Below, piece by piece: positions 331 to 25,826 of a stretch of 64,000 nt of DNA. Location of the stretch: assembly GCA_965223295.1 (NCBI GenBank), contig CBDCWC010000002.1, forward strand, positions 384,001 through 448,000, written 5' to 3'. Position 1 is the first letter of the stretch. Each line of letters starts with the position of its first letter. The stretch is from Nitrospirales bacterium. Lineage in GTDB: Bacteria; Nitrospirota; Nitrospiria; Nitrospirales; UBA8639. The position numbers and the translations under genes were made by a program. The notes beneath the pieces are model-generated. The model did not search any database and was not told where the DNA came from. It saw only the letters and a program-made list of their open reading frames with translations.

Positions 331-1536
331 TCATTTGGCAATCGTGATACTGGGAGGTGCGGCCTTTAGTTCTTCTGTCACGGTCATTTGATAGAGTTGA
401 TAGAGCAGGCGAAAGGCTTCTTGATTCCAGGATTCATCCTCCTGGTCACTAAATGAATAATATTCTCCTTCATAAGTAGCCACTAAGATTGCATCTTCCG
501 GTAGTGTCTTTGTTTCAATAATCTCAAACGTTCGAACTGGGTTTTCGGTCACATCTCCAGTGATAGGATCGGGGTCCACATGGTACTCGGGTTCTTCCTC
601 CATCGTGCGACCAAGAAAATTCAGAATGGTATGAAAACTTCGAAGGCGAAAATCGCCATGGATTGGAAGCTCGCCACCAGGAAAGCCCGGTCGAATATCA
701 ACCAATAAATCGTTTGGCGGCCAGCGCTCGGCTTTTTTTTGTAGAACAAAGCGTTCATCGGGAGAGAGCAGATCAGGGTCATAATTCGTAATGACGATGC
801 GCCCCACGATGCGTTTTTGCAAGATATAGGTGTTTGTGGCTGTGTCATAGGACACCTGATATTCTTTTTCCAAGGTAGAGAAGTCTTCCCCAGACAATCC
901 CGAGAAGGGAATGGTCCATTCACGTTCTAGGACTAACGGCTCCACGTATAATTGATTTGTGTCCTGTAATTGAGATAAATGCAGAACGGCTCGACGAAAG
1001 ATGGGGTACCCCATTTTGTCGGAGGGCCTATTGTAATAGGCAATTTCCCCTTCGCCATGAAAGATGCGCAGTTCTTCAGCCATTAATCGTAACAGTAAGT
1101 CAATGTCGACGCCTTGACGAAGAAGGAGCGTCAGTTTGTATTCTTGTAATGGGGTGAGGAGGCGTTTGGTAAAATCTTCTCCGTCAATTGGTGAAATGCT
1201 GATTGTGGGGTTTTCGGCAACACTCGTTCCAAAAAGAGGAGCGAGAGAAAATCCTCCATCGACTCCGCCGAGTGGAGGAGTGGCGCCCGCGTTCGCGCGA
1301 AAATCAAATGTTGCCGCAATATTGGATACGCCCGTAAAGTGAATGGGCTGATGGTGGTGGGCTCTTGCAATGTTGATTAGTAGTTGCTCCACCATTGTGT
1401 TTGTGACGGCATAGTCATAAGCCACGACAGCTTTTTCCATAGAATAAGGAGACAGGCATCCCGAAAGGCTGAGCAGCAGACAGCCAATGAACAGAACAAG
1501 TTTCAGGAGTGCTCTTAGGGTATTATTTGTGTCGAT
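331..1536 (-). CDS. Conserved hypothetical lipoprotein; start extended beyond the ORF track's 1440
   Basis: Frame upstream of 1440 stays open and encodes a hydrophobic stretch and lipobox (KLVLFIGCLLLSLSG|C). SD TAAGGAGG at 1543-1550 lies 6 nt before an in-frame ATC at 1536. Confidence 0.7.
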   Translation of the reverse strand: MDTNNTLRALLKLVLFIGCLLLSLSGCLSPYSMEKAVVAYDYAVTNTMVEQLLINIARAHHHQPIHFTGVSNIAATFDFRANAGATPPLGGVDGGFSLAPLFGTSVAENPTISISPIDGEDFTKRLLTPLQEYKLTLLLRQGVDIDLLLRLMAEELRIFHGEGEIAYYNRPSDKMGYPIFRRAVLHLSQLQDTNQLYVEPLVLEREWTIPFSGLSGEDFSTLEKEYQVSYDTATNTYILQKRIVGRIVITNYDPDLLSPDERFVLQKKAERWPPNDLLVDIRPGFPGGELPIHGDFRLRSFHTILNFLGRTMEEEPEYHVDPDPITGDVTENPVRTFEIIETKTLPEDAILVATYEGEYYSFSDQEDESWNQEAFRLLYQLYQMTVTEELKAAPPSITIAK

Positions 1537-1607
1537 AATTTGCCTCCTTAATCCTGTTGTTGAAATGACGGAATGACGACCATCAGAAAAATCCTATGGT
1601 CACATAA

Positions 1608-4331
1608 CTATTCTTTAGTGGGATATTGTTCCATGAGTTTTGCTACCAGCGCTGTCCAGCCAGTTTGATGATTCGCGCCAAGACCTGCTCCGTTATCTCC
1701 ATGAAAATATTCATGGAATTGAATAAGCTCTTTCCAATTTGGATCGTTCTGAAACTGGTGAATGCCCCCATACACAGGCCTGCCATCATGTTCATCTCTG
1801 AGAAAAATCTCAATGAGACGGTGAGCCAATTCGCCTGCAACGTTCCAAAGTGATGCATAATGGCCGGATCCAGTGGGGCATTCAATCGTATAAGAGTTTC
1901 CGAAGAAATGATGGTATTTCTGAAGAGACTCAATCAAAAGATAATTCACGGGAAACCATATCGGACCACGCCAATTGGAGTTGCCACCAAAATCTGGCAC
2001 GGTTGATTCAGCTGGTTCATATTTGACTTGAAAGGTATTGTCATTCGCCTGCAACATAAAAGGCGCGTCGTGATGATATTTCGACAGTGAGCGAATGCCA
2101 TAAGGCGATAAGAACTCCTGTTCATTGAGAAGGGCACGAAGGACGCGTGGGAGGCGGTTCTCTCCTACGATGGATAGCATGCGCCGAACCTGTCCATCCC
2201 GATGCATGCTTGTGGCAACATGACGCTGAAATTCTGGCCGATTCTCTAAAAACCAAAACATGCGCCGCCTAAATTCAGGCAAGGCATCAACGATTTCGGA
2301 CTCAATCGTTTCGACAGCAAAGAGCGATATTAATCCGACGATGGATCGGATCTTCATTTTTTTGTGCTCGCCATTGGGAAGATGTAGGACATCGTAATAA
2401 AATCCATCCTGTTCATCCCATAAATCGAGGCACTCGTCTCCTTTCCCATTGATGGCATGGGTGATGTAGACGAAATGTTCGAAAAATTTACTCGCGGCTC
2501 CTTCATACACAGGATTCTCCTTGGCCAACTCCAACGCTATCGCAAGCATGTTGAGACAATACATTCCCATCCAGCTTGTCCCATCGGATTGATCAAAATG
2601 GCCTCCTGTCGGCAGTTCTTTTGAGCGATCGAAGACTCCAATGTTATCCAAACCGAGAAATCCACCTTGAAAAAGATTTTTTCCATCGAAATCCTTACGA
2701 TTAACCCACCAGGTAAAGTTCAGCAGCAGCTTGTGAAAGACCTGTTCCAGAAAACTTCGATCGGCTTTCCCTTTGATGCGTCTGTCGATCTTATAGACTC
2801 GCCAAGCCGCCCAGGCATGGACGGGAGGGTTGACATCATCGAAGGACCACTCATATGCCGGGAGCTGACCGTTAGGGTGCATGTACCATTCACGTAAAAA
2901 TAAGAGGAGTTGTTCCTTGGCAAAGTCTGGGTCAATGAGAGCCAGAGGAATGCAATGAAACGCTAGATCCCAGGTGGCGTACCAGGGGTATTCCCATTTG
3001 TCGGGCATGGAGATGACATCGGCGTTATACAAGTGTGTCCATCTGCCATTGCGGATCTGGTCTCGTCTGGGCGGGGGCGGGGGACTGCCTGTATCACCTT
3101 GGCTCCAAGTCCGGACATCATAGTGGTAAAACTGCTTTGACCAGAGCAGGCCTGCAAAGGCTTGCCGTTGGATACGCTCTTCGTCAAGAGACAAATCGTG
3201 TGAGCGTATGGCATAGAATTCATAGGCTTCTGCTTTTCGTTTGGCAAAGGTTGCATTGAACGTTGCCTTAAATAGCGCTGCTGTAGGAGACTGATTGGTG
3301 AGCCGAAGTTTGAGTGTAGCCTGTGAATGAGGTGAAATGTGTAGTTGATAGCAGGCAGCAGCTTTTGTGCCGATTTGATCAGGGTGAACAGCGTGAGGTT
3401 CCTTCTGGATGAGATAGCGATGAAATGCATCTTTGACGTAGGGGGTGGGATTAGGTGAGCCCCATAGGCGTTCTCGATTGGACTCGTTTTCAGTAAAGAG
3501 CAGTTCTGGGTCGCCGTCACACGCCAACCATCGTTTTCCGAAATAGCCATGTTCTGCCTCAATAGCGACGATGTCTTGCGAAGCGTCGTATGTTCGTAGA
3601 GCGGGTTTGTCCGTACCAGTCCCCCATGACCAGGTATTGCGAAACCACAGCGTTGGACAGAGGAATAAAGGGGAAAGCTCAGCTCCACGATTGAAGGCAG
3701 TGACTTTGATGAGAATATCTTCCGGGGTGGATTTAGCGTATTCGATAAACACGTCGAAATACCGATTCTCTTGAAAAATTCCCGTATCCAACAATTCGTA
3801 CTCATGGTCGTTTCGACTTCGTTTGTGATTTTCTTCAACAAGTTGTTGGTAGGGAAACGCCTGTTGTGGGTACTTATAAAGAAATTTCATGTAGGAGTGA
3901 GTCGGTGTGGAATCGAGATAGAAATAGTATTCTTTGACGTCTTCTCCATGATTGCCTTCCCGATTTGTCAGTCCGAAAAGACGTTCTTTGAGTATAGGAT
4001 CTTGGCCATTCCACAGGGTCAAGGCAAAACAGAGATATTGGTGGCGATCACAGAGGCCACCAAGGCCATCTTCCCCCCATCGATAGGCACGTGAGCGTGC
4101 ATGATCGTGAGAAAAATATTCCCAAGCTGAGCCATCCGCACTATAATCCTCGCGTACGGTTCCCCATTGTCGTTCACTCAAATAGGGGCCCCAGCGTTTC
4201 CAATGTTTCTTGTGGTTGTTTGATTCTCTCAACCGTCGTTCTTCCGAGGTCATTGGTGTCTTTCTGGATGAGTTTCTTTGTTGTTTCTTTTGTTTTGAAA
4301 CTCTTTGGGCCATACCTGAATTTCTTGCCAT
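1608..4331 (-). CDS. GH63 / MGH1-like glycoside hydrolase (glucosidase)
   Basis: 907 aa. [44 protein letters not shown] and [22 protein letters not shown] are motifs typical of this family. Confidence 0.9.
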
Positions 4332-4672
4332 TGGGGTGTATCTCTTATTCTGTCAAAGAAATCAAGCTATGGAAACTGCTGGCTCATATTCCAATTTTCT
4401 ATCATGGTTCCATGAATAAGGAGGAAGACAGTTTGAATGGTTGAGAAGCAGACAAGCAATGAACATGACGAGATTGAAAAATATTCGTATATTTTTTCCT
4501 GTGTTGATAGATCGCTTCTTTTCTAAATCTACTCAACAAGAAACAGAAGAACCAGGAGAGGCTATCCTGCTCACGGTTGGTCGCTACGCAATGTGAACAG
4601 GATAGATCCATATAATACAATCTAGGGAAAAGCGTGATTAGTTCCCTAACCATGGGCTGAAGAATTTGCCAC

Positions 4673-5626
4673 TCAAGCGAATGGTTTTTTGAGGACGACT
4701 TTTACGCCGGCAATCGTTCCGGTGACGGCGTCGCGAACCTTTTCGCCTGCCGCTGAACTGATTTCACCAGCGGCAGTTAAGGCACTGGTCGCAGCTTCTG
4801 ATGCCGCTTCTGTGGTATTCACGCCGATTTCCTTGGCTCCTTCGATAGCGCCTTCGACGGCATGCTTGGCGGTCTCACCTACATCGCCTCCTACCTGGCC
4901 AACGGCTTTCACCATTGAACTTGCAGTATGACTCACAGTATCAAGAACTTTTCCGCCAACCTCCTGAGTGCCTTGTATGGCTCCTATCATGGAGTTTTTT
5001 ACTGTAGAGGCCAGATCTCCGCCAAGTTCAACGGTGGCTTTCACCAAACCTCCTGCCGTATGCCCAATGGTGTCAACTGCTGTTTCTCCGATTTCTTTTG
5101 CGGCATGTGCCGTCCCCACGAGGGTTTCTTTCACTGAGCCGCCTAATTCTCCACCTACCTCTGTGACTCCCTTGACAATAGCCGTAGATGTTTTGGTCAC
5201 GGCATCGACGACATTCTCCCCCATGTCTTTTGCGCCCACAATTGTCCCTTGAATAGCTCCCTTAGCTGTTTGGGCGATATCTCCTCCAAGATCCGAGGTG
5301 GTTTTAATCAACGTGGTCGTGCTGGTTCCGACTGCATCTAGGGTATTGGTTGCCACATCTTTTGTGCCTCCGACAACGCCTAAAATCACGCCTTTGGCGG
5401 CTGCCCCGACTTCTCCACCAACTTCCACTATTCCCTGAACTGAGCCGATGATCGTGTTTTTAATCAAGTCACCTGCCTCACTTCCAATGTCTTTCGTGCT
5501 TTTAAGCGCTGTGACTAAGGAGCCGCTCACCGTCTCTACGGTTGCATTGGTCACGTCTCCAACACCTTTAATTGCTTCAATAAGGCCATCTTTGGCTTTT
5601 GCAATGAATGATTGTTGGTCTGACAT
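4673..5626 (-). CDS. Gly/Ala/Val/Thr-rich 22-residue tandem-repeat protein (paralog A)
   Basis: 317 aa with 13 consecutive 22-aa units. SD AGGGAGG upstream. Ungapped paralog at 19877. Confidence 0.85.
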   Translation of the reverse strand: MSDQQSFIAKAKDGLIEAIKGVGDVTNATVETVSGSLVTALKSTKDIGSEAGDLIKNTIIGSVQGIVEVGGEVGAAAKGVILGVVGGTKDVATNTLDAVGTSTTTLIKTTSDLGGDIAQTAKGAIQGTIVGAKDMGENVVDAVTKTSTAIVKGVTEVGGELGGSVKETLVGTAHAAKEIGETAVDTIGHTAGGLVKATVELGGDLASTVKNSMIGAIQGTQEVGGKVLDTVSHTASSMVKAVGQVGGDVGETAKHAVEGAIEGAKEIGVNTTEAASEAATSALTAAGEISSAAGEKVRDAVTGTIAGVKVVLKKPFA

Positions 5627-5806
5627 GGTATACCTCCCTTGTGGCTATGATGATAGGATGCTGAATGACGAAATGCTGAAAAGAATCTTTCGTGAGAATG
5701 ATATGTGGTTCATAATCTGTTTTTTTGTCTGTTTCACGTGTGTTCGATTGCTAGCATTTAAATATTAAATCATTACTTTATTTTTTAGGATTCAACGCAA
5801 TGTGTA

Positions 5807-8800
5807 CTAATTATTCGATTCCGGTGGTTGACCTTTTTCCTCCTTGGGTAGAGGAAGAGTGATAATGTTCTTTAACATGTCGATGGGGACTTGGGCTAAC
5901 CCTTTGATCCCTCCAGTGAACGAATCGATAGGTCGATAGGTCACTTCAGGTTTGGTTCTTGGACCTTTTACTTCAAACAAAGCTGTTAATAATCCCTTTC
6001 GCTCGCCTTTCATAAGAGAGCCAAACAGTGGGATATCTTTCAATAGATTAGAATAGGCTCCAAATGGACTGACCGCAATCATGCTTTCCAAATTTTCTGT
6101 GGGAATGTCATAGCTGCCGGCAGCCGTGAGTTTGATGACGGGGCTCTTTAAGGCCAAATTATCGGTCGTGAGAAGCCCTTGCTGAATGGAGAAATCTCCT
6201 GTGAGATCATCATAGGGAAGGCCTTCTTCTAAAAGGTTCACCTTGCCCATTAAGAGGCTTGGAATATTCAAGATCCCCAGAATTTTGGATAGCACCGGCC
6301 CGGTTTGAATTTTTCCTTTATGTAGTTGAACCTTACCTTTTCCCGTTAATGAACGTTGCATGTATTCCGGACTTTCCAAGTCCATCGACAGTGAAGTGGT
6401 CAATGAGGTTGTTCCAGTCAATTGTGGTGAAGAATCCGATTGAGCCATGAAAAGGCTTTCGATAGGAATTTCATTGAGGGTGATTTCTCCTTTCCCTTTC
6501 TGGTTTTTCTGGGCCCACTGGATTGAAGTTGATTGAAGGTTTATTGTTTCGTCTGACTTTATACTTTGTGCAGTACGGTTGCTTCCTTCTACTGATCCCT
6601 TCATCGTCCAAGTTTTCCAATCCCAGTTCTTTCCTTCTAGCCCCCACTTGACACCCAAACTGGTAAGGCGAAGGTTTCCATCTCCCAGGATGACTTTGGG
6701 AGGCAGGAGCGCTCCTGTTCCGCTTTCAGTTTGGAAAAACCCGCGAATAGATGGGGGGTCTGACCATACCAGTAGACCTTGGGCTTCTAGAGTATAAGGA
6801 AGGAGAGATAATGTCCCCTGAGTCATGCGGATGGACTGGTTATCTCGCACCGTGCCCTTTGCGTTGAATATTGCCGGGATCCCTGCAGGCTTATGTATGA
6901 TGCCTTTGACGGTCAGCGTCATTGGGGTGAGATCAACATTGGCCTGATACTTGGTGTGCTGTAGAGATCCTGAGAAGGACATAGTGCTGTCGATAGTTCC
7001 ATCGAGAGTCGAGAACGTTTCAGGAATAGAAGGGTAAAGAGCTTTAAGGTCAGATGAGGTAAGTTGACTTGTGATTGAGAGATCATTCGATTGAGAGTCT
7101 TTCCCAAATGACCATTGCCCTTTGATGTCTATCGGACTTTCGCCAAGTTGTCCTTTAAAATCTTGAATACGTAGGCCTTGGTTATCAAAGGATACGTGGC
7201 CATTGAGTTTTTGGAGTGCCAACCCATCTGACGCGGGAAAAAGATGAATGTCATCTAGCAATAATTTTGTCGCCAAAACTTGGAGTTGAGAGGGCTTGGC
7301 CAGAGAACCTTGTATATGTGTCGAGAACTGAAGGCTCCCCCGCGCATCATGATAAATGGTCAATGGTTCAAGGCTTGGTAGGTTACGAGGATCGCGCTGC
7401 AAGGCCTGGTAGACATCATGGGCTTTTAACGAGCCATTGCCATAGAGATCTAGCCAGATATCAGAACCGTTCCATTCAAGCGTGGCTTCTTTGACGAATA
7501 GCTGAGAAGCTGCGATGCTTCCTTTCACATCTACTAGCCGAACCAGATTAGATTCAAAGACAATTCCACCAGAAAGATTTTTCATCTGAGGGTGGTTTTG
7601 ATCGACCAAGACTTGCCCATCGGTGACTCGAAATACTCCCTCGGGCATAAGAGAGTTGGCGTCATCGTCTTTCCACGTCACTGATCCGGTGCGAAGTTCT
7701 ATTTCCCCGTCAATTTGTCGTTCGGCTAAAGTGGTACCAAGGGAAGCGGGGAGCCAGACATCGGGAAGTAAGGTCGAAAAACGTTGAATGGAGATTGGTG
7801 TGGATGATCCTGAAACAGTTAGCGTGGGCGGCATTGTCTGATTTGAGGTGAATTCTAGGATTCCGTGAAGTTTCCAGTCTTGTTCGGAAATCTGAAAATT
7901 GGGAATCTGAAGATCAAGAGCACCATGTTCTTGAAGTGTGAGTGATGCATGAGGAATAGAAATGTTGAATGGCGAGACCTTTCCCTGGACCTGTGAAAAT
8001 TGGAACGCAGAAGGAGTAAAGGTAATGGACCCTGAGATATTACGTATCAGGGGTTGCCCGACAGCAGGGAGATATTGACCGTTTTTCACCTGCAGAATTC
8101 CTTCAGCATTCGATGGGCCAATGGAAGCTAGAGGAATCTGAAAAGATCCCTGCTCAAGTTTTACAATTCCCCTGACTTGATGGTTATGAAGAATCGTCTT
8201 GACGTTTTCAGGTATCCAATCAGGTGGTAAGAGATTGGAGAGTTGTTCAAGAGCAAGAGGTGACGATGATCCTGAGATGTCTAGTTGCGGCGAATCCTGA
8301 AGCAAATCAGCCAGCAGACCCTGGCCGGATAATGTCCAATCGTTTAAGGAAATCTCAAACTCTGAGACTGTCAACAGATCAGTGTCATTTTGCAAGGCGT
8401 ATGAAACGTTTCCTAGAATGTTTGCAACGGTAGAAAGTGGTGGGTCCAATACCTGCTCATTCACAAACTCAACCAAGCGACCAAGGTTCAGTTGTGATCC
8501 TTCAATGTGTCCTTGGAATTCGAAGATGGGCGTCGTATCGTCCTCGATGAGGAGAGATTGATCTGATTCGAGAACTGTGAGCTTTCCATTAAGTGCAAGT
8601 GTGGAAGAATATTCTGGGTCTGCAATCTGTGCTGATAGGTGAATAAGAGAAGGCCCTTCGGTTGTTGTTTGCGTGATCGTGAGTTGTATCGGTTCGACAT
8701 CGAGCGCTGGTATTGTTTGGGCCTCAGACGAGGGAAGCAGGTGTAGGTGCCCGTTACGGACAGCCAATTCTTCTATGGCTGGCAAAGGTTCCGTGCTGGG

Positions 8801-9205: not shown

Positions 9206-9261
9206 AATATTGGCTGTGCCCTCTTTGTCAAAGAGCCACGGGAGGGTGGAGAACTCCAGAG

Positions 9262-9984
9262 TTACGGTACATCTTCGGTTTTTTCGTTATCTTGTAGTTT
9301 AGAAATGGGGTTCGGATCTTCAAACGGGCCAATTAAGTTGGTGCGGTGAAACTCAATGAAGAATAGGACCGTGTATTCGTTATAAAAAGTGAGAGCCTGT
9401 AGCCAGGGAGTTGAACGTAGAAATTGACCAGTGGCGGTTTCAAAGATATCCAACCGGAATCGACTGAACCCTGATTGATATTGAGCCGCATATAATGAAA
9501 TTTCTGGCAAGGAGAAGGGAATTAATACACTCTGAACGGGAGGCATGCCAAAGAATGATCGACTTTGTTCCGTGCCTAAACTTTGAACCAAGATTTGAAT
9601 GTGGTAGGAAGCCTCTTGACCATCCAGTGCAAGTCGCAATCCCTGTTCTCCTAACCAGCGGCCAACGGCGCCAATGAGAAAGCGGTGTTCGCTGGCTAGT
9701 CCAGTCGTCTCCAATTTGATCGTGGAGTCTACAGGAAGTGGAAGAGAGAACGCGTCCTTTCCCTCAAGGCTTTTTTCTATTGCCTGAGTGACGAGCAACT
9801 GCTCAATAGCCGTGGCCTGATCGGGTGTTGGCAGTTCTTTCATGACGGCGCAGCCTGTCGATGCGATGAGAAGAACGCAAAGGACTATGTGGGTTTTTAT
9901 AGCGTGGAGATTCATAGGTCGAGCGAGGAGATCCTGTGGCAGATTGTTGGACGATGCATCGGCACGTTGACACTTGTTACCCAT
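9262..9984 (-). CDS. Hypothetical lipoprotein
   Basis: SD GAGGAGG before ATG at 9984, overlapping the end of the upstream gene. Lipobox-like LLIASTG|C; TAIEQLLVTQAIE motif. Confidence 0.7.
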   Translation of the reverse strand: MGNKCQRADASSNNLPQDLLARPMNLHAIKTHIVLCVLLIASTGCAVMKELPTPDQATAIEQLLVTQAIEKSLEGKDAFSLPLPVDSTIKLETTGLASEHRFLIGAVGRWLGEQGLRLALDGQEASYHIQILVQSLGTEQSRSFFGMPPVQSVLIPFSLPEISLYAAQYQSGFSRFRLDIFETATGQFLRSTPWLQALTFYNEYTVLFFIEFHRTNLIGPFEDPNPISKLQDNEKTEDVP

Positions 9985-11933: not shown

Positions 11934-11996
11934 GAGGTGCTTCTCCTTTTCATGGTAATCATAGCATTATTATTTAAAGGGATTGAGAAAAATGGA

Positions 11997-12425: not shown

Positions 12426-12500
12426 ACTAACGAAAGCTCTTCTGAAAGCAGTGGATAGTTAAGTATGTCAACGAGTAGTAACATTGCAACCTTTCAAGAG

Positions 12501-13535: not shown

Positions 13536-13591
13536 GATGTCATGTCACGCGGTAGGAAAAATGGGGTGCATGTCATGGGTCCTCAAAAACA

Positions 13592-14896: not shown

Positions 14897-15759
14897 GAAG
14901 TTTCCTGTTCTTCCGGAGCTGGTGCGGAAGGTGTCATAGTGGTTAAGACATTTCCAATCGTCGTCATGAGTACCATCCCAGATAACGAATAGGCCTCCCA
15001 CAACTGCAGAAGACCATCTGAGAGAAAAGCTGGTTGATATTCGATGGATTTGGACTGGAGATATTGTCTCAGGGTACGGTGGCGAAGTGCGCCAATAAAC
15101 GTCTTGTCTTGAGCAATGACTGGAAGGCTATCGAAGCGTGCCCAAGCCGGATGCGCCACAATGTCCCTGGCATTGGCAGAAGAGGGAATCACTTTGACTT
15201 CCTGATTCATGATAGAAGTTAGCGTGCTAGCAGGTTCGGCCGCGAGAAGCTCTTTCATCAGCACCACTCCTATAAGGATGTTCCCACGGTCAATAATGTA
15301 TAAGTAGTAAATCGCTTGATGCGGAACGTGCACGATACGCTGCAGGGCATCTCCCACAGTGATATCAGGAGGCAGTGTCAGGACTAGAGGATCGGCTAGG
15401 CTCCCGGCTGTATGTTCCGACAAGTGAATGGTTCGGCGAAGTAAGCTCGCTGCACGAGGTTCGAGGTGCCCGAGCAACGTTTCCTGTGTGGAAGGATCAA
15501 CTTGCCGGAGAATGGCTCGAGAAAACCCGGGAGATAGTCGGCCAAGAATTTCAGCGCTGACTGCTGGTGGGCATTCTTTCAGGATTGTGGCAGCCGCACT
15601 TGGTGAGAAATATTCGAGGGTTTGAGCCACATGTGCGGGCTCCATGGTTAGGAATATGTCTCTCGTTTCCTGGGCCGGTCGTCCCTCGAGATATCTAGCG
15701 GCCTCCAATGGATGTTTCTCAAGAAACTTCTTTTGGAGATGGTGTTCCAACTTCATCAT
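14893..15759 (-). CDS. Soluble MgtE N-domain + CBS-pair protein with no full transporter domain
   Basis: MgtE_N-like helical repeats, TAGSLADP, YYLYIID...LIGVV, LPVI CBS motifs. Ends before any 5-TM MgtE domain. Confidence 0.8.
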   Translation of the reverse strand: MMKLEHHLQKKFLEKHPLEAARYLEGRPAQETRDIFLTMEPAHVAQTLEYFSPSAAATILKECPPAVSAEILGRLSPGFSRAILRQVDPSTQETLLGHLEPRAASLLRRTIHLSEHTAGSLADPLVLTLPPDITVGDALQRIVHVPHQAIYYLYIIDRGNILIGVVLMKELLAAEPASTLTSIMNQEVKVIPSSANARDIVAHPAWARFDSLPVIAQDKTFIGALRHRTLRQYLQSKSIEYQPAFLSDGLLQLWEAYSLSGMVLMTTIGNVLTTMTPSAPAPEEQETS

Positions 15760-15760
15760 G

Positions 15761-16594
15761 TTATGCCTCGACCGGTTCAATCACGCTGGTGACTTCGGTG
15801 AATTGTGCGGCTGGAATCACCACTCGCCCACGCTCTGTATCCAACACGACGATCATGGGCGTCACGGCAGTGACGGTGCCGGAGTAGTTCTCAATCTGAA
15901 TCTTTTCCCCAATACGAACAACGGGTTGAATGTAATGTGCGGCAATGAGATTTTTGACTGCTGATCGAGACCCAAAACCAAATGACAAGGCGGATCCGGC
16001 AATGAGACCCGCAATGACGAGCACGATAATTTGGTTTAAGAGTGAGGTGTCAATCCCGAGTTCATTAATGGCGGTCACGATAACCAGGAGGGTGGCGGCG
16101 ATGTACACAGTTTGGGCGATAATCGTACTCTGTTGGATCCCAGAAGAATCACATGCTACAGCGATAATGTCCCGTACAAAGTTGGTGGCTAGGAGTCCTA
16201 GGATCAAAATAAGTGTCGCCATTCCAATTTTTGGAAGATAATGCACGAGCATGGTCAAGGTTTCAGACAAGAGGGCGAGACTCAGCGCTTCGGTGGCAGA
16301 AATGAGAAAAAGAAGAAAGACGAGCCAAAATCCCAGGAGCCCGACAATTTGAGAAATAGATCTATTGCTTCCAGTTTTTTGAATCAGAGAGAGAAGTCCC
16401 GTGCCGCTGAGCCATCGATCGATACCGATCATATTCAAGATCCGGCTGGATCCGGCTTCAATGATTTTCCCCAAGAGAATCCCCAGTCCCAGCAACATCA
16501 ACGCGCCAAGAGTTTTAGGGAGATAGGTCATAAATAATGTAACACTTGATTCAAGTGATTCTTGCATAGCTTTTGTCCAAATCGCTATATCCAT
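15761..16594 (-). CDS. Small-conductance mechanosensitive channel family (TM-helix-repeat, CmpX-like)
   Basis: Two YLPK TM-helix repeats, ALSFGFGSRSAVKNLIA, GEKIQI...GTV...VVIP. SD AGGAGG. Confidence 0.85.
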   Translation of the reverse strand: MDIAIWTKAMQESLESSVTLFMTYLPKTLGALMLLGLGILLGKIIEAGSSRILNMIGIDRWLSGTGLLSLIQKTGSNRSISQIVGLLGFWLVFLLFLISATEALSLALLSETLTMLVHYLPKIGMATLILILGLLATNFVRDIIAVACDSSGIQQSTIIAQTVYIAATLLVIVTAINELGIDTSLLNQIIVLVIAGLIAGSALSFGFGSRSAVKNLIAAHYIQPVVRIGEKIQIENYSGTVTAVTPMIVVLDTERGRVVIPAAQFTEVTSVIEPVEA

Positions 16595-17447
16595 GAGAAA
16601 GACCTCCTAGGATTTTTTGAGAAAAAAGTGGAATGACGGAAAGATAACAATTGGAAGATGGCGGTTAAGATATCGAAAGTTGTTCTTTGTTCCTTAGATG
16701 GCCTGGCATAATTCTCTGCGGGAGCAACTGTTGAGACAATTTTTTCAGCATTTCTAAGTGGCCTTTCATTTGTAGTCATCTGCATGTGAGGAATCGAATT
16801 CTTGTGATGCCTATCTGCTAGTTTTTTGCCGATGATTTTTTCGTCTTCCCAATGTCCTCCCTTTTTGTACTCAATCATAAGTGGCTCATGAGAGGCCGAG
16901 TATCGTTATTCCGATAAACAAACCTATCAAAATCTTCATGTGCAACCTTACTGTTTTCTACCCGAGCTATGTGCCTTTTCGTTCCGATGGATGACTTTAT
17001 GAATTCTGGCTGCCATGGTTGAGGTTGTCTTCAAAATGTTGTGATTCATTTTTGTGATGTGTCTTGAAATTACAAGGCCGATATGTTTTTGGCGTGGCCT
17101 AAGTTTTTACTCCTGAAATTTAGATAAGTCATCTTTTGGCTTACATAAATAAACTATGGAGAATATTGATAGTGTGAAAATTTTAACTGTGCTAGATGGA
17201 GTCGGAATCTGAATGTCTTAAGCCAATGACGACGTAACAGACAAAAGGCTAGCAACAACCAAAGGAGCAAATGTTCAATTACTTTGGTGAATGAAAACGG
17301 CTCCTTTATCTTGGAAAGGTCAATGTGTAAGTTTTCCCGTCAAGCGAATCGGACAAAAGTAGAATTTTTGGTGATTTCATCAAGCAATAGAGGTGTCCTG
17401 ACTTCTTTAAGCTCTTTCTTTTGCGTGTCATTCCTTGGTGTGGTTAT

Positions 17448-17477
17448 TTAGACAATGAGAAACAACAATTCGTCACA
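17448..17477 (-). promoter_or_regulatory. Putative ECF sigma promoter TGTGACG-N15-TTGTCTAA
   Basis: Minus strand reads TGTGACG aattgttgtttctca TTGTCTAA. Boxes and spacing are identical to 19783-19812. Confidence 0.65.
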
Positions 17478-17478
17478 T

Positions 17479-17692
17479 GGGTCTGTTGAAAAAATCCGCC
17501 AGCGGCGTTCTAGCCATTTTTCCGTGCTCGCGTAGGACCAATACGCTCTGTGCGCAAGAATGGTTGTGGCCTTCCCTTCGACAAGCTCAGGACAGGACTG
17601 GATGGATTTTTTTCAACTGCCCCGAAGCTATTGGTATCCGACGTGATCATGAGCAAATTTGTCTCTCGTGTTTTGTATTATTCAACACTTCC
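17479..17692 (+). mobile_element. MITE family 1, copy 1 (191-bp core + 23-bp nested module)
   Basis: Ends GGGTCTGTTGAAAAAA ... ATTATTCAACACTTCC. Colinear with the reverse complement of 62962-63152. Flanks TCACAT/TCATAT. Confidence 0.8.
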
Positions 17693-17876
17693 TCATATGG
17701 ACGTTTCAAAAGTAGGTGTCGAGAGAGATTTGAAGAAATTGGAAGAAGCCGTGTTGGGAATCACGAGGGTTGAGGATGGGGACTCGAGCCTCTACTTGGG
17801 AGTAGATAGCAAGCAGGAGAACTCAATGTGTAGAAAGGTTGAATAGTCGGTAGCTAAAGAGGGACTCTTAAAGATT

Positions 17877-18722
17877 TTACGATGGTCTTTGTTTGGAACC
17901 CTCCGTAATGATTCGTTCATTTGGAATGTGCAGTGTTTCCTCATCGGCCGTTTTGATGATAACCGAAACGGGAGTTATTTTGATGATCGTTCCCTTATAT
18001 CCGCCTAGAGACACGGAATCTCCGACATGGAAGAGTTGAGAGATGTAGTAGCGGGCAAGGACATTTGTCATAATGGACCGGCTTCCCAGGCCAAGAGATA
18101 GGGCTAAGGCTAACACGATTCCAGAAATAATGATCGTGATATTGGCACTAAAAATGGTCATATCCAATCCGAGTTCGGTTAAGGCCATGACAATACCAAA
18201 GCCCACAATCAAAATTTCCAGTACCGAACTTAAAGCCCCAGCATAGGCAATGTTGAGCGAGGTTGAGGCTGAAGCAAGTCCGTCTTTAATAACCTTGGTG
18301 AGATACAAGGCAATGATCAGAATTAAAAGGGCTCCGAAAACATGTGGAAGGTAGGCAATAAATCTATTCAATGTATCTAGGACAAGCTTGAAGCCTAAGA
18401 TTTCCGAGGCCGAAAGAAGAACAATGAAAAGCACCATGTAATAGACCAGACCTCCTAATATCTCGTCTAGCGTTTTCGTTATTCCCACCTTGGTTAACAT
18501 GGAATGGAATTTGATTTTTTTGCTTAATTCCACAATCCCACAGGCACGAAGGACTTTCACCGTCAAACTTCTAAGGATTTTGGCCCCCAGCCATCCAATT
18601 GCAAGAATGACAATTGCTCCAAGTACGTTTGGGAGATATCCACCAATTTTTTCGAAGATGCTTTGAAGAAATACCAGAACAACCTTTCCCCATTCCCAGA
18701 GTTCGTTCTGTGTGCCTACCAT
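17877..18722 (-). CDS. Second MscS-family (TM-helix-repeat) protein
   Basis: YLPNV/YLPHV repeats, ALSLGLGSRSIMTNVLA, VGDSV...GTI...IPN. Paralog of 15761-16594. Confidence 0.85.
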   Translation of the reverse strand: MVGTQNELWEWGKVVLVFLQSIFEKIGGYLPNVLGAIVILAIGWLGAKILRSLTVKVLRACGIVELSKKIKFHSMLTKVGITKTLDEILGGLVYYMVLFIVLLSASEILGFKLVLDTLNRFIAYLPHVFGALLILIIALYLTKVIKDGLASASTSLNIAYAGALSSVLEILIVGFGIVMALTELGLDMTIFSANITIIISGIVLALALSLGLGSRSIMTNVLARYYISQLFHVGDSVSLGGYKGTIIKITPVSVIIKTADEETLHIPNERIITEGSKQRPS

Positions 18723-18734
18723 TTCTCTCTCCTC

Positions 18735-18917
18735 TCACTCATCTGTTGAATCGGTAAATAATGTGACGGGGATCGAGGCGTGAAATGCTCCAACTTCCTT
18801 CGCGACTGTGAGGAAATATACGGCTTTCATGATCTGTTTTTTCGTGGTTTTGTCAGGATCAGGAATGGCCAGTGAATCGAGAACATGTTCAAACAGCTGT
18901 TGTTCATCGCTATTCAT
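18735..18917 (-). CDS. 60-aa protein translationally coupled to the ECF sigma gene (candidate anti-sigma)
   Basis: SD GGAGG, and ATGA overlap with the sigma stop codon. MNSDEQQLFEHVLDSLAIPDP... Confidence 0.65.
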   Translation of the reverse strand: MNSDEQQLFEHVLDSLAIPDPDKTTKKQIMKAVYFLTVAKEVGAFHASIPVTLFTDSTDE

Positions 18918-19438
18918 GATTTGACCTCCTCCCGGAGCTTGGTGATCAATCGTGATACTCGCATTTTTGCGGCACTCACGCCAATGTTGCAACTTGCCGC
19001 AATTTCTTCATACGAATATTTCCCAAGAAATTTCATAGCCAGAATGGTCCTGTCTTCCAGGGAGAGTTTTTGCAGAAGATGATGAATTTCAATTGACGCG
19101 GCTGGGTTATCTTGGCTGGGTGCATCCAATGGTATATCCCCCGACAACACCTCAGAATGAGCCTTTGATTTGAGGTAGTTAAGGCAATGATTGGTGGATA
19201 GTCGATACAGCCAGGATGAAAATGCAGAGTGCTTCTTGAACGCATGGAGGTGCAGGAAAACTTTGACCCAGATTTCCTGCATTAAATCTCGAGCGACTTC
19301 AATGTTTAAACAGATAAAGTAGCAGCGCTTTAGAACTTTCTTGGCATATCGGTCATATAAAATTTCGAACGCCTGAAGGTCTCCTTGGTTAATGCTGTCA
19401 ATAAGTTCGTTGTCAGTGAAATGTTCGTATAAAGGCAT
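18914..19438 (-). CDS. ECF-type RNA polymerase sigma factor
   Basis: Region 2 (AFEILYDRY...DLMQEIWVKV...FSSWLYRLSTNHCLN) and region 4 (SYEEIA...SAAKMRVSR). Confidence 0.95.
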   Translation of the reverse strand: MPLYEHFTDNELIDSINQGDLQAFEILYDRYAKKVLKRCYFICLNIEVARDLMQEIWVKVFLHLHAFKKHSAFSSWLYRLSTNHCLNYLKSKAHSEVLSGDIPLDAPSQDNPAASIEIHHLLQKLSLEDRTILAMKFLGKYSYEEIAASCNIGVSAAKMRVSRLITKLREEVKS

Positions 19439-19782
19439 AGAGAGATAGATCTGGAGGAAAGAGTATTATGGACTTAGCCGGCATTGATCTGAGCGGGTGT
19501 ATAGTCCTGAGCTGTCTTATGCATAGTCTATCCCTAACCATTTGGGCAGACCTAGGGCAGAGATTTAGAGCAGCCTGAGCTTTGGTCAATATCCCAAATT
19601 CTTCCGATTGTAAATAGATTGATTTCTTGCTTCTCTTTCCAAAGGTAGAGGAAGCGGTTTTCTACGTCTTCTATGAGAGTTCCCTTGGTTCGTCAAGTAT
19701 GGTGCCACATTTTTTGAACTGACCTGTTGTATCACATGACATAATTCTCAAGAAACAATTATGAAGAAATTATCCTACTATT

Positions 19783-19812
19783 TGTGACGTTTTTTCCTGT
19801 TACGTTGTCTAA
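19783..19812 (+). promoter_or_regulatory. Putative ECF sigma promoter TGTGACG-N15-TTGTCTAA
   Basis: TGTGACG ttttttcctgttacg TTGTCTAA, 64 nt before the ATG of repeat protein B. Confidence 0.7.
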
Positions 19813-19876
19813 GAGTACATGAAGGGCAATTGCGTCAAATTCTTTCATTTTCATTTAAAAGTGGAGGGTAAAGATT

Positions 19877-20830
19877 ATGGCTGAAGAAAAATCCGTTATC
19901 GTCAAGACAAAAGAAGGTGTTGTTGAGGCTATTCAAGGTACAGGTGACGTGACAAGCGCACTTCTAAACCTGGTAAGCGGAACCCTTGTAACGGCATTAA
20001 AGGGAACGAAAGCAGTCGGGGGGGAAGCTGCAAGTTTGGTCAAGGATACAATTGTGGGCTCAGTCAGGGGAATTGCTGATGTAGGGCAAGAAGTGAGTTC
20101 TGCAGCAAAAGGCGTCATTGTGGGTGTTGTGACAGGTACAAAAGAAGTCACGGAAAGTACTCTGGATACAATTGGGAAAAGTGTTAGTACGTTAATTCAT
20201 ACAACTTCCGAAGTGGGTGGTGATCTTGCGCAAACAGCCAAAGGGGCGATGGAAGGGGCTATTGTTGTTGCGAAGGATCTAGGAGTCAGTGCCACCGAGG
20301 CAATTACCCAAACCAGTACATCAATTATTTTTGGTGGGAAGCAGGTTGGGGGTGAGTTGGCAAATACGGCCAAAGAAACTATGATTGGCGCGGCCCAAGG
20401 TGCGAAAGAAGTTGGAGTGCAAGCGATAGAAACCGTAAGTCATACGGCGGGAGCAGTCGTGAAGGCCACATCTGAACTTGGCGGGGATGTGGGTTCAACA
20501 GTCAAAGGAAGTATGGTTGGGGCCCTTCATGGAGCCAAAGAGGTTGGTGCAACCGTACTAGATGCCGTGGCAGGGACCGCAAGTTCCATGATTAAATCCA
20601 CGGGCCAAGTTGGAGGAGATCTCGCCATTACTGCAAAAAATGCTGTTGAGGGTGCAATTGAAGGGGCTAAGGAGATAGGTGTCGACACGGCCGAAGCCGC
20701 TTCAGCAGCTGCAAGTAGCGCGCTAAAGGCGGCGGGGGATATCAGTAGTGATGCTGGAAAAGCAGTCCGTGATGCGGTTTCTGGGACAATTGGCGGGGTG
20801 AAAGTTGTGCTCAAAGAGCCGTTCAAATAG
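19877..20830 (+). CDS. 22-residue tandem-repeat protein (paralog B)
   Basis: 317 aa, SD GGAGG. Aligns without gaps to 4673-5626 (33 of the first 60 residues identical by hand count). Confidence 0.85.
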   Translation: MAEEKSVIVKTKEGVVEAIQGTGDVTSALLNLVSGTLVTALKGTKAVGGEAASLVKDTIVGSVRGIADVGQEVSSAAKGVIVGVVTGTKEVTESTLDTIGKSVSTLIHTTSEVGGDLAQTAKGAMEGAIVVAKDLGVSATEAITQTSTSIIFGGKQVGGELANTAKETMIGAAQGAKEVGVQAIETVSHTAGAVVKATSELGGDVGSTVKGSMVGALHGAKEVGATVLDAVAGTASSMIKSTGQVGGDLAITAKNAVEGAIEGAKEIGVDTAEAASAAASSALKAAGDISSDAGKAVRDAVSGTIGGVKVVLKEPFK

Positions 20831-21058
20831 AAATACAGGTTCTCGTGTTTACTAAGGAAATAGGAAATTAAAATAACCTTTTTCTATGGTGAAGGTTATT
20901 TGTTGGATAGCGGAGAAATTGTGCAGATAAATTTTGGTAAAGAAGAACGAGGGGAGGCCTATCAATAAAGTATAATACAAGTAAATATTGGAGTTTATGT
21001 GTTCCTTTTCCCTAACCAGTAGAGTCTTAGAAATCTTCTTGTTCCTCATCTGTTTGGT

Positions 21059-22720
21059 TTGATGCGTTACATATCCCTTATTGGCCAACTTGCCGGAGGA
21101 ATAGGCCTCTTTCTTCTGGCCATGAAATTCATTACCGATGGCTTGAAACTGGCTGCCGGCAATGCCTTGCGAAATCTTCTGGGGCGTTGGACCCAAACAC
21201 CAATCAAGGGGATTGGTGCAGGTTGTCTCTTAACCGCCATAGTTCAATCGTCCAGTGCCGTGACGGTCGCCACGATCGGTTTTGTCAATGCTGGACTGCT
21301 CACGTTGTTCCAAGCCGTGGGGGTTATCTATGGAGCCAACATCGGGACCACTATGACGGCATGGCTAGTGGCAATTTTGGGATTCAACATAAAAGTTGAA
21401 CTCTTTGCCTTACCCATGATCGGGATCGGCGTTCCTCTGTGGTTTCTCGCTTCACATTCTCGAAAAGGAGCTTTTGGACAAGTATTTGCAGGGTTTGGCT
21501 TATTTTTTATAGGGATAGATACGCTGAAAAATGCATTTCAGACCGCTTCATCGTCATTTAATCTGGCGATGGTTACCGAATTCGGAGTGCTAGGTGTCTT
21601 TTTTCTTGTCGGGATTGGATTTCTCCTTACGGTTCTTACCCAGTCATCAAGTGCGGCCATTGCCATGACCTTGACGGCGGCCAGTGGGGGCGTGTTGGCC
21701 ATGCCAAGTGCCGCGGCCATGGTGATCGGCTCGAATCTTGGTACCACGTCGACGGCGTTTTTTGCTGCCATCGGGGCCACGTCAAATGCCAAACGTGTAG
21801 CGGGAGCCCACATTGTGTTTAACGCGGTGACCGGCCTGGTTGCGCTGTGCATTCTTCCGCTTCTCATCTGGGTTACGACTGAAACCGGAAAAATTTTAAA
21901 ACTTGAGGACACACCCATCATGGTGCTGGCCTTATTTCATACCGTGTTCAATGTGTTGGGGGTCCTGATCCTTTGGCCGTTTACAAAGCGATTGGTGGCT
22001 TGGCTTCAGCTGCAGTATCGGACAGAAGAGGAAGACGAGAGTAGACCCAAATATCTTGATGAAACGGTTACGGCAACTCCTGCATTAGCGATGAATGCGT
22101 TATTGATGGAGATTGATCGAATCGGAGTGCTGGCCAGGCACACCGTTGTGACGGTCTTGATGCATGGAAAAGAATATGGCCGACGAATTCAAAGCCGAGA
22201 AGAAGTTATTGCTCAATTGGTTGAAACGGTAGGCCAATTCATTATCAAAACACAGAAGCTTCCTTTAGTTGAAACGGACGCGTCTACTCTTTCTAAGACC
22301 CTCCGTATCATGCACTATTTAGCAGAAGGGACAAACTTGGTCATGGGGGTTGTTGGGCTACAAACAGCAGGGGAGGGGTTGGCAGATAAATCTCTCACAC
22401 CTGCTTTTATCGGGCATACGCGAGCCGTCACGAACTGGCTGGTTAAAATTGACTTGCGATCAAGCCAAATGAGCGTTGAACAAATAGAGGCAGGTTTTGC
22501 TTCATTGGAACAGAGTTACCAAGACCTTAAAGAAGGACTTTTGCGAAGTGGTGCAACTGGAAACATTGGCCCTCGTGACCTTGACCACCTTCTTGATCTA
22601 CTCAGTCTGTTACATCGCGTGCTGGAACGACATCTGAAGGCTTTGAGAATGCTGATTCCCCTTCTCGCAGAGCGAGAGCTTTTCATTCCTCGGAAAGTGA
22701 ATGCGCCAGCTTTGCAGTAA
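21059..22720 (+). CDS. Na+/phosphate cotransporter family (PhoU-like C-terminus)
   Basis: Two QSSSA motifs, GANIGTT and GSNLGTT. Confidence 0.9.
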   Translation: MMRYISLIGQLAGGIGLFLLAMKFITDGLKLAAGNALRNLLGRWTQTPIKGIGAGCLLTAIVQSSSAVTVATIGFVNAGLLTLFQAVGVIYGANIGTTMTAWLVAILGFNIKVELFALPMIGIGVPLWFLASHSRKGAFGQVFAGFGLFFIGIDTLKNAFQTASSSFNLAMVTEFGVLGVFFLVGIGFLLTVLTQSSSAAIAMTLTAASGGVLAMPSAAAMVIGSNLGTTSTAFFAAIGATSNAKRVAGAHIVFNAVTGLVALCILPLLIWVTTETGKILKLEDTPIMVLALFHTVFNVLGVLILWPFTKRLVAWLQLQYRTEEEDESRPKYLDETVTATPALAMNALLMEIDRIGVLARHTVVTVLMHGKEYGRRIQSREEVIAQLVETVGQFIIKTQKLPLVETDASTLSKTLRIMHYLAEGTNLVMGVVGLQTAGEGLADKSLTPAFIGHTRAVTNWLVKIDLRSSQMSVEQIEAGFASLEQSYQDLKEGLLRSGATGNIGPRDLDHLLDLLSLLHRVLERHLKALRMLIPLLAERELFIPRKVNAPALQ

Positions 22721-25823: not shown

Positions 25824-25826
25824 GCG

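Follow-up and report, generated by a model that had tools for sequence, protein, structure and literature searches.

The question raised by this locus is whether the genes gathered around the gene for a sigma factor of the extracytoplasmic function (ECF) type in a Nitrospirales bacterium belong to one regulatory system or are simply neighbours. They occupy positions 331 to 22720 of a stretch of 64,000 nucleotides (here called the window), and a first-pass annotation had read them as a single ECF-controlled envelope and ion-stress regulon. We find it probable that a SigX-like ECF sigma factor has here both its regulatory core and its main island of target genes. The gene identities, the uniqueness of a promoter-type motif, the co-occurrence of this motif with the sigma gene, the synteny among relatives and the homology of an MscS-like protein (MscS1) to CmpX of Pseudomonas were computed directly.

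Comparison with the loci of relatives revealed a motif, TGTGACG-N17-GTCTAA, that is present exactly twice in the 3.78-Mb genome, at window positions 17448-17477 on the minus strand (P1) and 19783-19812 on the plus strand (P2), against a computed chance expectation of about 0.1 occurrences. Its extended consensus reads TGTGAC(G/C)ATTT...GTTGTCTAAATAA, and the spacing between the -35 block TGTGAC and the -10 block GTCTAA was 18 nucleotides in 16 of 16 sites. When the genome was searched with a position weight matrix (PWM) built from 14 sites of seven other genomes, that is, leaving its own sites out, P1 scored 33.6, P2 24.3, a third site 19.4 and all others 10.8 or less, the maximum of the reversed-sequence control being 10.5. 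The third site (C3:1045629, plus strand), which is outside the window and above the control maximum, has no convincing gene downstream. P1 sits about 850 nucleotides upstream of an operon with the order MscS2 (a second MscS-like gene), MgtE, CNNM, RimB, RimK, AstE, lipoprotein and AsmA, and P2 precedes repB, one of two genes for repeat proteins; a P2-type motif is kept upstream of the repeat-protein gene in G059, L056, L067 and L068 (G and L numbers are our handles for genomes and loci). This genome-wide search bears out the earlier claim that one and the same motif stands ahead of the divergent arm and of the genes from the second MscS onward. In G059, a fourth ECF-motif site was seen in locus L031 (6345-8899), about 330 nucleotides upstream of an open reading frame (ORF) of 740 codons whose product, read by eye, appears to be glycogen-branching-enzyme-like.

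The sigma factor is an ECF (group 4) protein with sigma2 and sigma4 domains only (PF04542, 46.5 bits; PF08281, 40.4 bits; TIGR02937, 72 bits against a cut-off of 42.9). Calling orthologs at E up to 1e-20, we found it in 12 of 50 genus genomes counting this one (11 of the 49 others), and in a phylum sample in 5 of 401 genomes, all within this family and from two other genera. The 30-nucleotide form of the motif was present in 14 of the 50 genus genomes, and these included all 12 sigma-positive genomes and 2 of the 38 sigma-negative ones; in the former, 22 of 24 motif matches lay on the contig that carries the sigma gene, and with the pattern reversed as a control, 9 hits were obtained in the 50 genomes. 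In the sister genus g11 the motif is also upstream of the sigma gene (scores of 29.9 in G395 and 28.6 in G330), which is the usual signature of ECF autoregulation. The link across genomes supports an ECF-linked regulon with one promoter type at both of the places proposed in the first-pass annotation. It also bears on the alternative that the cluster is a mosaic of independently regulated neighbours, with the motif acting as the operator of another DNA-binding protein and the sigma factor acting elsewhere. We consider this very unlikely, since the motif consists of two blocks at a fixed spacing as in ECF promoters, tracks the sigma gene and lies beside it at every locus, and upstream of it in G395 and G330; moreover, the receiver-domain protein encoded in the relatives' loci has no DNA-binding domain, no scan having been made for other DNA-binding regulators.

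The features of the core and of its predicted targets are listed below. Gene families were called with Pfam and NCBIfam profiles, and the Pfam scan covered the ORFs of window 331-27416.

18917-19438, minus strand: ECF sigma factor, SigX-like, 174 amino acids (Pfam Sigma70_r2 and Sigma70_r4)
18738-18917, minus strand: o60, soluble protein of 60 amino acids, candidate anti-sigma factor; its ATG overlaps the sigma stop codon
17877-18722, minus strand: MscS1, CmpX-type MscS-like membrane protein, 281 amino acids (two PF05552 and a partial PF00924)
17478-17660, no strand assigned: copy of a repeat element abutting promoter P1 (228 blastn hits in the genome; terminator-like hairpin at 17514-17498, minus strand)
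17448-17477, minus strand: P1, ECF-type promoter TGTGAC-N18-GTCTAA (leave-own-genome-out PWM score 33.6)
16595-17447, minus strand: leader of about 850 nucleotides with decayed small-gene remnants (by comparison with the G059 leader)
15761-16594, minus strand: MscS2, second CmpX-type MscS-like protein, 277 amino acids (two PF05552 and a partial PF00924)
14893-15780, minus strand: soluble protein with MgtE_N and CBS domains (Pfam)
13592-15001, minus strand: MgtE Mg2+ channel (TIGR00400, 258.3 bits against a cut-off of 232.75; PF03448, PF00571, PF01769); from the reading of its N-terminus, its true start is probably near 14896
12501-13535, minus strand: CNNM/CorC-family membrane protein (PF01595, 117 bits)
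11997-12425, minus strand: RimB-like retropepsin-type peptidase (PF05618, 139.8 bits)
11028-11933, minus strand: RimK alpha-L-glutamate ligase (NF007764, 431.9 bits against a cut-off of 331; PF18030 and PF08443)
9977-11206, minus strand: AstE/AspA-family zinc deacylase-like protein (PF24827, 135 bits); its true start is probably later than the ORF start
9262-9915, minus strand: lipoprotein with lipobox LIASTGC (sequence reading; syntenic in the relatives' loci)
5807-9205, minus strand: AsmA/YhdP-like protein, last gene of the packed operon (PF13116, 120.6 bits against a cut-off of 46)
19783-19812, plus strand: P2, ECF-type promoter 65 nucleotides upstream of repB (leave-own-genome-out PWM score 24.3)
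19877-20830, plus strand: repB, 317-amino-acid protein of 44-residue repeats (sequence and predicted model)

From MscS2 to AsmA, the genes overlap or are separated by intergenic gaps of 75 nucleotides or less, and no terminators were found between them. The gene list of the first-pass annotation was confirmed by the Pfam and NCBIfam profiles with two refinements of identity: the gene called a protease (PF05618 is named Zn_protease) encodes a retropepsin-like protein closest to RimB, and the one called a carboxypeptidase encodes, according to PF24827, an AstE/AspA-family deacylase. In proteins of the CNNM/CorC type, a CBS pair and a CorC_HlyC domain come after the CNNM (DUF21) membrane domain; in the protein found here, PF01595 was matched and neither CBS nor CorC_HlyC was reported by Pfam at E up to 0.01. 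The AsmA-like protein reached 72 bits on the YhdP equivalog TIGR02099, far under its cut-off of 519, and the lipoprotein at 9262-9915 had no Pfam or NCBIfam match. Two further ORFs (16585-16878 and 4402-4653) were rejected as genes, and probably are not, judging from the lack of a family match or a ribosome-binding site and from their overlap with the leader remnant and with a duplicated fragment described below, respectively.

Synteny gives a similar picture of the core. The sigma, o60 and MscS1 genes are adjacent in 11 of 11 related loci (7 of 7 of the genus and 4 of 4 of two other genera), and the motif is just downstream of MscS1 in all seven genus loci. After triad and motif, the relatives carry a variable stretch of 4-10 kb. 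Encoded there are a protein with a receiver domain and one with a LapA domain, three Asp23 paralogs together with their membrane partners, a lipoprotein of the BON type, Usp, transporters of the PHO4 and Na/Pi kinds, and a protein in which PF05552 is repeated four times. Downstream of the variable stretch, the genus loci continue with MscS2 (orthologs of 82-91% identity in six of them), MgtE_N, MgtE (six of seven), CNNM (five), lipoprotein plus AsmA (four) and the terminal lipoprotein. By comparison of the loci, the genome studied here has lost the variable stretch, and no Asp23 genes were found anywhere in it. In its place, a 1.28-kb gap (16595-17876) made up of a repeat element and decayed ORF remnants parts sigma-o60-MscS1 from MscS2, so that the co-oriented minus-strand run described in the first-pass annotation holds for the strand, not for continuity. 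A leader segment (16752-17015) shows 72% identity to the G059 leader over 268 nucleotides, and the leader has stops in all frames and, by tblastx, retains an interrupted piece of a small membrane ORF of which relatives have intact versions. The repeat element (17478-17660) directly abuts the -35 block of P1. A riboswitch or other known RNA in the 850-nucleotide leader was discarded, as no Rfam family matched and decayed coding remnants were found instead; at gathering thresholds, Rfam reported for the window a tRNA at 58429-58501 only.

The whole composition was found in a different genus. On one strand, G395 carries sigma, o60, MscS1, the promoter, EipA-like, receiver, four-PF05552, lipoprotein, AsmA, MscS2, MgtE_N, MgtE, CNNM, RimB, RimK, AstE, repeat-protein and lipoprotein genes, and the NPIRA01/02 loci L062 and L065 are similar. 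The high variability of the island's gene content between species speaks for the mosaic alternative, and so does the locus L069 of a close relative (a contig of G063), where at about 4400-10950 the Na/Pi gene adjoins an AstE fragment followed by the lipoprotein, AsmA and repeat-protein genes; no sigma ortholog was found in G063, and the arrangement suggests that a deletion in nature took away all genes from sigma to RimK and left those three in place.

How would the core work? We propose that the sigma factor is co-transcribed with o60, which most likely keeps it inactive by binding sigma2 and sigma4, and with MscS1, most likely the input sensor of membrane tension or state that relieves o60. 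Released sigma would read the -35 TGTGAC and -10 GTCTAA blocks at their 18-nucleotide spacing; P2 would then drive repB, and P1 the long leader followed by MscS2, MgtE_N-CBS, MgtE, CNNM, RimB, RimK, the AstE-like protein, the lipoprotein and the AsmA-like protein, on a transcript that would start at 17441 and read through to AsmA. The o60 protein measures 59-60 residues in 13 of 13 aligned orthologous loci, with a mean column identity of 79%, 23 invariant positions and an invariant Glu at the C-terminus, and has neither a hydrophobic C-terminal segment nor a transmembrane one. Its predicted complex with the sigma factor, for which alignments were supplied for both chains, had an ipSAE of 0.73 against 0.00 for the best control; solved complexes reach this mark in 116 of 157 cases and mismatched pairs in 2 of 215, a calibration that holds roughly, as custom alignments were used. 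Contact agreement between runs was at least 96%, and the predicted local distance difference test (pLDDT) of the partner at least 70. The predicted contacts join sigma residues 19-62 (sigma2) and 111-172 (sigma4) to o60 residues 5-37, which is how an anti-sigma clamp is arranged. The o60 tail, residues 38-60, is equally conserved but lies outside the predicted interface; for these residues we infer that they may bind another partner, for which MscS1 is the obvious candidate.

The MscS-like proteins depart from the channel of E. coli. MscS1 residues 121-273 align to residues 24-172 only of E. coli MscS (TM1-TM3 plus beta domain, E 4.5e-8), and both proteins end about eight residues past the beta domain and have an extra N-terminal pair of PF05552 helices. 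With a PF00924 cut-off of 20.2, MscS1 passes (33.5 bits) and MscS2 stays below (18.8 bits). With the cytoplasmic alpha-beta domain undetected, their channel activity is uncertain, and a sensor role is plausible from this architecture.

A similar pairing is found in Pseudomonas. According to the parts of the ECF classification by Casas-Pastor et al. used here (PMC7826278), the ECF102 factor SigX has its gene in an operon that also encodes CmpX, a homolog of mechanosensitive channels, and CfrX, which is a putative anti-sigma factor; the channel is conserved in subgroups s1, s2 and s5. Extracts of a second source (PMC7641640) place the CorA-like Mg2+ channel CmaX in the same operon, describe cfrX-cmpX transcription as SigX-dependent and the SigX promoter consensus as "not precisely defined", and report that valinomycin activates SigX and that SigX up-regulates cfrX-cmpX upon cold shock. 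In both, as excerpted, SigX of P. aeruginosa is a major envelope-stress regulator whose activation mechanism and promoter consensus are unclear. Having the theme of sigma factor, MscS-like channel and Mg2+ channel in common with the present locus, the Pseudomonas cmaX-cfrX-cmpX-sigX cluster (PMC7826278 and PMC7641640, in the same extracts) had been overlooked when the first-pass annotation stated that no characterised system was known. We found no literature on an ECF factor with an MscS-like gene in Nitrospira, most matches being judged from their listing.

Using the curated SigX family, two true SigX loci were found in Gammaproteobacteria, in G683 and G640 (366 and 214 bits, members scoring 214-366). 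MscS1 is 29.6% identical to the sigX-neighbour gene product over 274 amino acids (E 8e-32), and that neighbour is the best MscS1 match in both genomes and the sole one in G683; at the sequence level, MscS1 is thus a specific CmpX homolog. The sigma factor is 31% identical to SigX, and its best match in G683 is sigX (67.2 bits, the next scoring 53.3). The Nitrospirales motif was absent from the two true SigX loci, whose best PWM scores were -2.9 and 1.2. From these comparisons the locus appears SigX-like in working principle and shares the CmpX partner; as the sigma factor falls under the family cut-off, we do not count it as an established ECF102 member.

Several observations weigh against the reading of the locus as a SigX-like core with its target island. 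On NCBIfam SigX (NF007222) the sigma factor scores 87.6 bits against a cut-off of 194, yet this is the best of 77 families, and in G640 another ECF factor tops sigX when it is used as query (67.0 against 62.4 bits). The C-terminal alpha-beta domain of MscS (PF21082) was undetected by Pfam at E up to 0.01 in both MscS1 and MscS2. No family matches of o60, anti-sigma profiles included, were found in Pfam or NCBIfam, hhalign gave a probability of 0.1% between o60 and the ORF of G683 in the CfrX position, and the anti-sigma role that o60 most likely has is one read from the structure prediction. The motif is absent upstream of the sigma gene in this genome. Read-through from P1 to MscS2 is assumed across some 850 nucleotides of decayed DNA, and a block with the word TTCCGTCATTC, separately conserved 47 nucleotides before MscS2, may be another promoter. 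Related genomes are not independent samples, so that the co-occurrence counts overstate the statistical weight, and of the 49 other genus genomes five have both sigma and repeat protein, six sigma only, five the repeat protein only and 33 neither. Of the five genus loci that extend beyond CNNM, three (G045, G057 and G002) lack the RimK module. Finally, no public RNA runs matching window 15700-20900 were found; sigma dependence and transcript starts are inferred here.

The word TTCCGTCATTC itself occurs upstream of MscS2, repA and the terminal lipoprotein gene and is a feature separate from the ECF motif. As a shared ECF promoter it was rejected, with 29 matches at two mismatches against 25 expected and 17 loose matches genome-wide, and no consistent -35 element was found upstream of it. 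A TGTGAC-N18-GTCG site upstream of the terminal lipoprotein was likewise rejected, its PWM score being about 0.

What the regulon is for can be approached through its targets. The motif-linked targets of the relatives include three Asp23 proteins, BON, LapA_dom, Usp, PHO4, Response_reg and the four-PF05552 protein, and from these stress-type genes the regulon most likely serves osmotic, ionic and envelope stress; we infer a role in the homeostasis of these conditions. The signal might instead be membrane fluidity or temperature, or general cell-wall stress, as for Pseudomonas SigX, with which the valinomycin activation and cold-shock response of the latter (PMC7641640, extracts) and the presence of an AsmA/YhdP-like gene of lipid-transport type and a LapA-domain gene among the targets would agree. 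We regard such a signal as unlikely, as most targets are ion or solute transporters or osmotic-type stress proteins (MscS-like, MgtE, CNNM, BON, Asp23, Usp and phosphate transporters), and a repeat-protein gene of Omnitrophota sits with CdaA and a K+ channel; the two kinds of signal are not mutually exclusive. A bolder version of the osmotic and ionic role, and as a whole a doubtful one, a shade less probable than a fluidity signal, is that the CmpX-type MscS homolog would be a membrane-tension receptor that captures or releases o60 through its tail (residues 38-60), upon which sigma would induce a turgor and ion kit. This kit would consist of additional valves gated by tension, import and export of Mg2+, a lipid transporter of the AsmA type, a naturally occurring solenoid that resembles designed helical repeat proteins, and RimB-RimK-AstE for glutamate polymerisation and depolymerisation as an osmotic and Mg2+ buffer. 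If true, it would provide a clean promoter and a clean regulon for the long-unclear mechanosensing pathway of the SigX type.

The last element of that kit was the core idea of the first-pass annotation, namely that RimB-RimK-AstE is functionally tied to the Mg2+ transporters. According to it, RimK and RimB would make poly-alpha-glutamate and RimB and the AstE-like hydrolase would degrade it, so that the main cytoplasmic anion would cycle between an osmotically active monomer and a cation-binding polymer, with MgtE and CNNM matching Mg2+ and the MscS-like channels venting solutes. The three genes are a unit: in further Nitrospirota RimK loci, RimB adjoins RimK in 7 of 7 and the AstE-like gene in 6 of 7. 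RimK was found in 10 of the 401 sampled phylum genomes and is 94% identical across genera. The RimB-like peptidase, which has no N-terminal signal sequence as read from its sequence, scores 131.9 bits on NCBIfam RimB against a cut-off of 200, and 139.8 bits on PF05618 against a cut-off of 27.

Neighbourhoods speak on both sides of this idea. In G000 (the genome studied here), G059, G015, G395, G330, L060, L062, L065 and L071, the module has CNNM on one side and the lipoprotein or repeat-protein gene on the other. Another family within the class has a CNNM gene (50-53% identical) adjoining RimB-RimK-AstE in 3 of 3 genomes, and in one of these, genes for MscS-like, MgtE_N and MgtE proteins are present within 4 kb as well. 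The locus L106 of an Omnitrophota metagenome-assembled genome (4373-17400) codes on one strand for AstE, RimK, RimB, MgtE and the c-di-AMP synthase CdaA; after these come a repeat-protein homolog, a TrkA-type K+ channel, elongation factor P and CNNM. It is an independent co-localisation of the same themes. On the other hand, the module is absent from G045, G057 and G002, where the lipoprotein gene directly follows CNNM, in 4 of the 7 further Nitrospirota loci no CNNM or MgtE gene is found within 10 kb of RimK, and RimK was unmentioned among the top literature matches for RimK plus magnesium transporters.

The substrate is a second line of evidence. Modification of ribosomal protein S6 by RimK needs a C-terminal glutamate on S6. 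The S6 of this genome (L150 1492-1872, C3) ends in ...EGEDSGDGGIQ and has no such residue, despite a RimK at equivalog level; if the requirement holds, another substrate or a free polymer is indicated. RimB stimulates poly-alpha-glutamate synthesis, and a depleted glutamate pool and a shifted osmolality are discussed (PMC11957791, in the portion available), and related secreted Rlo peptidases have been linked to hypo-osmotic tolerance (PMC12239564, likewise in part). Considering all this, the coupling of glutamylation to Mg2+ is a reasonable hypothesis with neighbourhood support, one that we would call possible though somewhat improbable.

The twin repeat proteins were correctly recognised as such in the first-pass annotation: repA and repB, both of 317 amino acids, are 63% identical without gaps, and 11 of 11 aligned orthologs have the same length without indels (mean column identity 79%). 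They repeat every 44 residues, a sub-period of 22 being visible within this, and are rich in Gly (14.5-15.5%), Ala (14-15%), Val (13%) and Thr (10-12%) and lack Cys, Trp and Tyr. In the AlphaFold2 model, 14 helices that each span about 18 residues are stacked (pLDDT 86.2, predicted template modelling score 0.86), a confidence to be taken with care given the regular repeat and the 11 sequences only, and the predicted fold is a helical solenoid whose best natural structural match has a Z of 7.8. Late embryogenesis abundant (LEA) proteins and hydrophilins are strongly hydrophilic and Gly-rich. The repeat proteins were rejected as members of these groups, despite their Gly content, for their positive grand averages of hydropathy (+0.21 and +0.29 for the two proteins) and the compact fold of the model. 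Against Phasin_2, repA obtained 30.9 bits (cut-off 24.9) with no single stretch passing, and repB had no match.

A full HMMER search among 1.84 billion representatives yielded 777 representative clusters at E up to 0.001, most of about 190 amino acids, spread over many phyla and with no named member; in the ESM Atlas the matches were 'hypothetical protein' clusters, the nearest named one being DUF6781 at 0.76, a lead only. Around 64 non-Nitrospirales repeat-protein loci, BON-domain neighbours were found in seven, and among the neighbour ORFs scanned with Pfam (the first 125 of 224 selected) there were MscS at two loci, BrkB at four, NfeD/FloA at two, AsmA at one and glucan-metabolism enzymes at four. 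Our best guess is that the repeat proteins are cytoplasmic, stress-induced scaffold or membrane-associated proteins. In G006, a member of the genus (C3:190092-190653; L007, L010), we noted a pseudogenised repeat-protein gene of 37-38% identity with several in-frame stops.

The remaining genes of the locus lie at its two ends.

4673-5626, minus strand: repA, paralog of repB, 317 amino acids (no ECF motif)
1608-4331, minus strand: GH63/MGH1-like glycoside hydrolase (Pfam)
331-1541, minus strand: terminal lipoprotein of an unnamed conserved family (lipobox LSGC)
21059-22720, plus strand: Na/Pi cotransporter-related protein (TIGR00704, 214.9 bits against a cut-off of 210.1)

The inclusion of GH63, repA and the terminal lipoprotein in the regulon, as first proposed, was not supported: they lack the ECF motif, and the look-alike site of the lipoprotein scores about 0. 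We take these three genes as neighbours with their own control, and that they are clearly under other control is a further point for the mosaic alternative. No counterpart of GH63 was found in the 18 related loci compared or in 80 repeat-protein loci and, as judged from this comparison, it is a strain-specific insertion; the stretch upstream of it (4395-4530) duplicates, in diverged form, the 5' end of the terminal lipoprotein gene (1425-1560, signal peptide and lipobox region) and looks like the scar of that insertion. Upstream of repA (window 5640-5700), an inverted repeat ACGAAA-N14-TTTCGT is kept before the repA-type gene of the closest relative (L069) and may serve as an operator. Overlapping with it is one of the three copies of TT(T/C)CGTCATT(C/T), of which the others are at 16631-16641 (before MscS2) and 1563-1573 (before the terminal lipoprotein). 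In the terminal lipoprotein gene, which has orthologs at the cluster end in G041, G045, G057, G395 and L071, the lipobox LSGC is encoded upstream of the first ATG at 1440 (window 1441-1541), and translation likely starts at a non-canonical ATT or ATC just after AGGAGG. The Na/Pi gene probably lacks the motif and is probably outside the regulon; the 228 nucleotides between it and repB contain no clear terminator (fold z = -2.18, 8 of 200 shuffles folding as well). Beside the locus, window 24834-27416 carries genes of the Alpha-E and circularly permuted ATP-grasp type 2 families, which are a second system of the ATP-grasp peptide-ligase type whose orthologs (about 90% identity) are near the repeat-protein gene in G009 and G014.

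The system offers a sharply defined promoter, a compact contiguous regulon and a soluble anti-sigma candidate with a predicted clamp, and the genomes with and without it are a natural comparison set. It also places RimB-RimK plus an AstE-like gene beside CNNM/MgtE, the truncated MscS proteins of CmpX type and a widespread helical-repeat family in a testable context. For the Nitrospirales, which are relevant to nitrogen cycling, it points to a dispensable and horizontally variable osmotic and ionic stress module.

Parts of this locus resemble known systems to different degrees. The repeat-protein model is similar to de novo designed helical repeat proteins, with Foldseek TM scores of 0.74-0.76 to 8cwy and 8cws and VIA-align Z values of 19.8 (root-mean-square deviation 4.3 A, 261 residues) and 17.2 (3.0 A, 201 residues); in contrast to these, the repeat proteins occur in nature and abound in Gly, Ala, Thr and Val, and with 12-16% identity the resemblance is one of fold only. 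As in the Pseudomonas RimABK system, RimK exceeds the equivalog cut-off and an adjacent gene encodes a RimB-like retropepsin-type peptidase. However, the Nitrospirota loci have a conserved third partner, the AstE/AspA-family hydrolase, no EAL-domain (RimA-type) protein was annotated by Pfam in the region, the module is inside a predicted ECF-driven ion-transport operon and S6 is without the C-terminal glutamate. NepR is the small soluble anti-sigma factor of the alphaproteobacterial EcfG general stress response. Like it, o60 is a soluble protein of about 60 residues predicted to lie between sigma2 and sigma4, with a regulon rich in general stress genes, but it has no sequence-family match and no PhyR-like anti-anti-sigma factor is present.

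The closest likeness is to cmaX-cfrX-cmpX-sigX-oprF (ECF102) of Pseudomonas, where an ECF sigma gene also adjoins that of a CmpX-type protein, with a small putative anti-sigma factor beside them and an Mg2+ channel gene in the locus. The small-protein and channel genes are SigX targets in Pseudomonas (PMC7641640, in the extracts cited above), and here a CmpX-type paralog, MscS2, is a predicted target. The differences are in gene order (sigma, small protein and channel here; cmaX, cfrX, cmpX and sigX in Pseudomonas), in the Mg2+ genes (MgtE and CNNM instead of a CorA-like one), in the OmpA-family (OprF-like) domain, none being annotated by Pfam in the ORFs of window 331-27416, and in the large contiguous target island and sharply defined promoter found here. 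An ECF module of the SigX/CmpX type was thus already known, and what this locus adds to it is another anti-sigma candidate, a promoter that is defined, and a target island that is contiguous and unusually rich.

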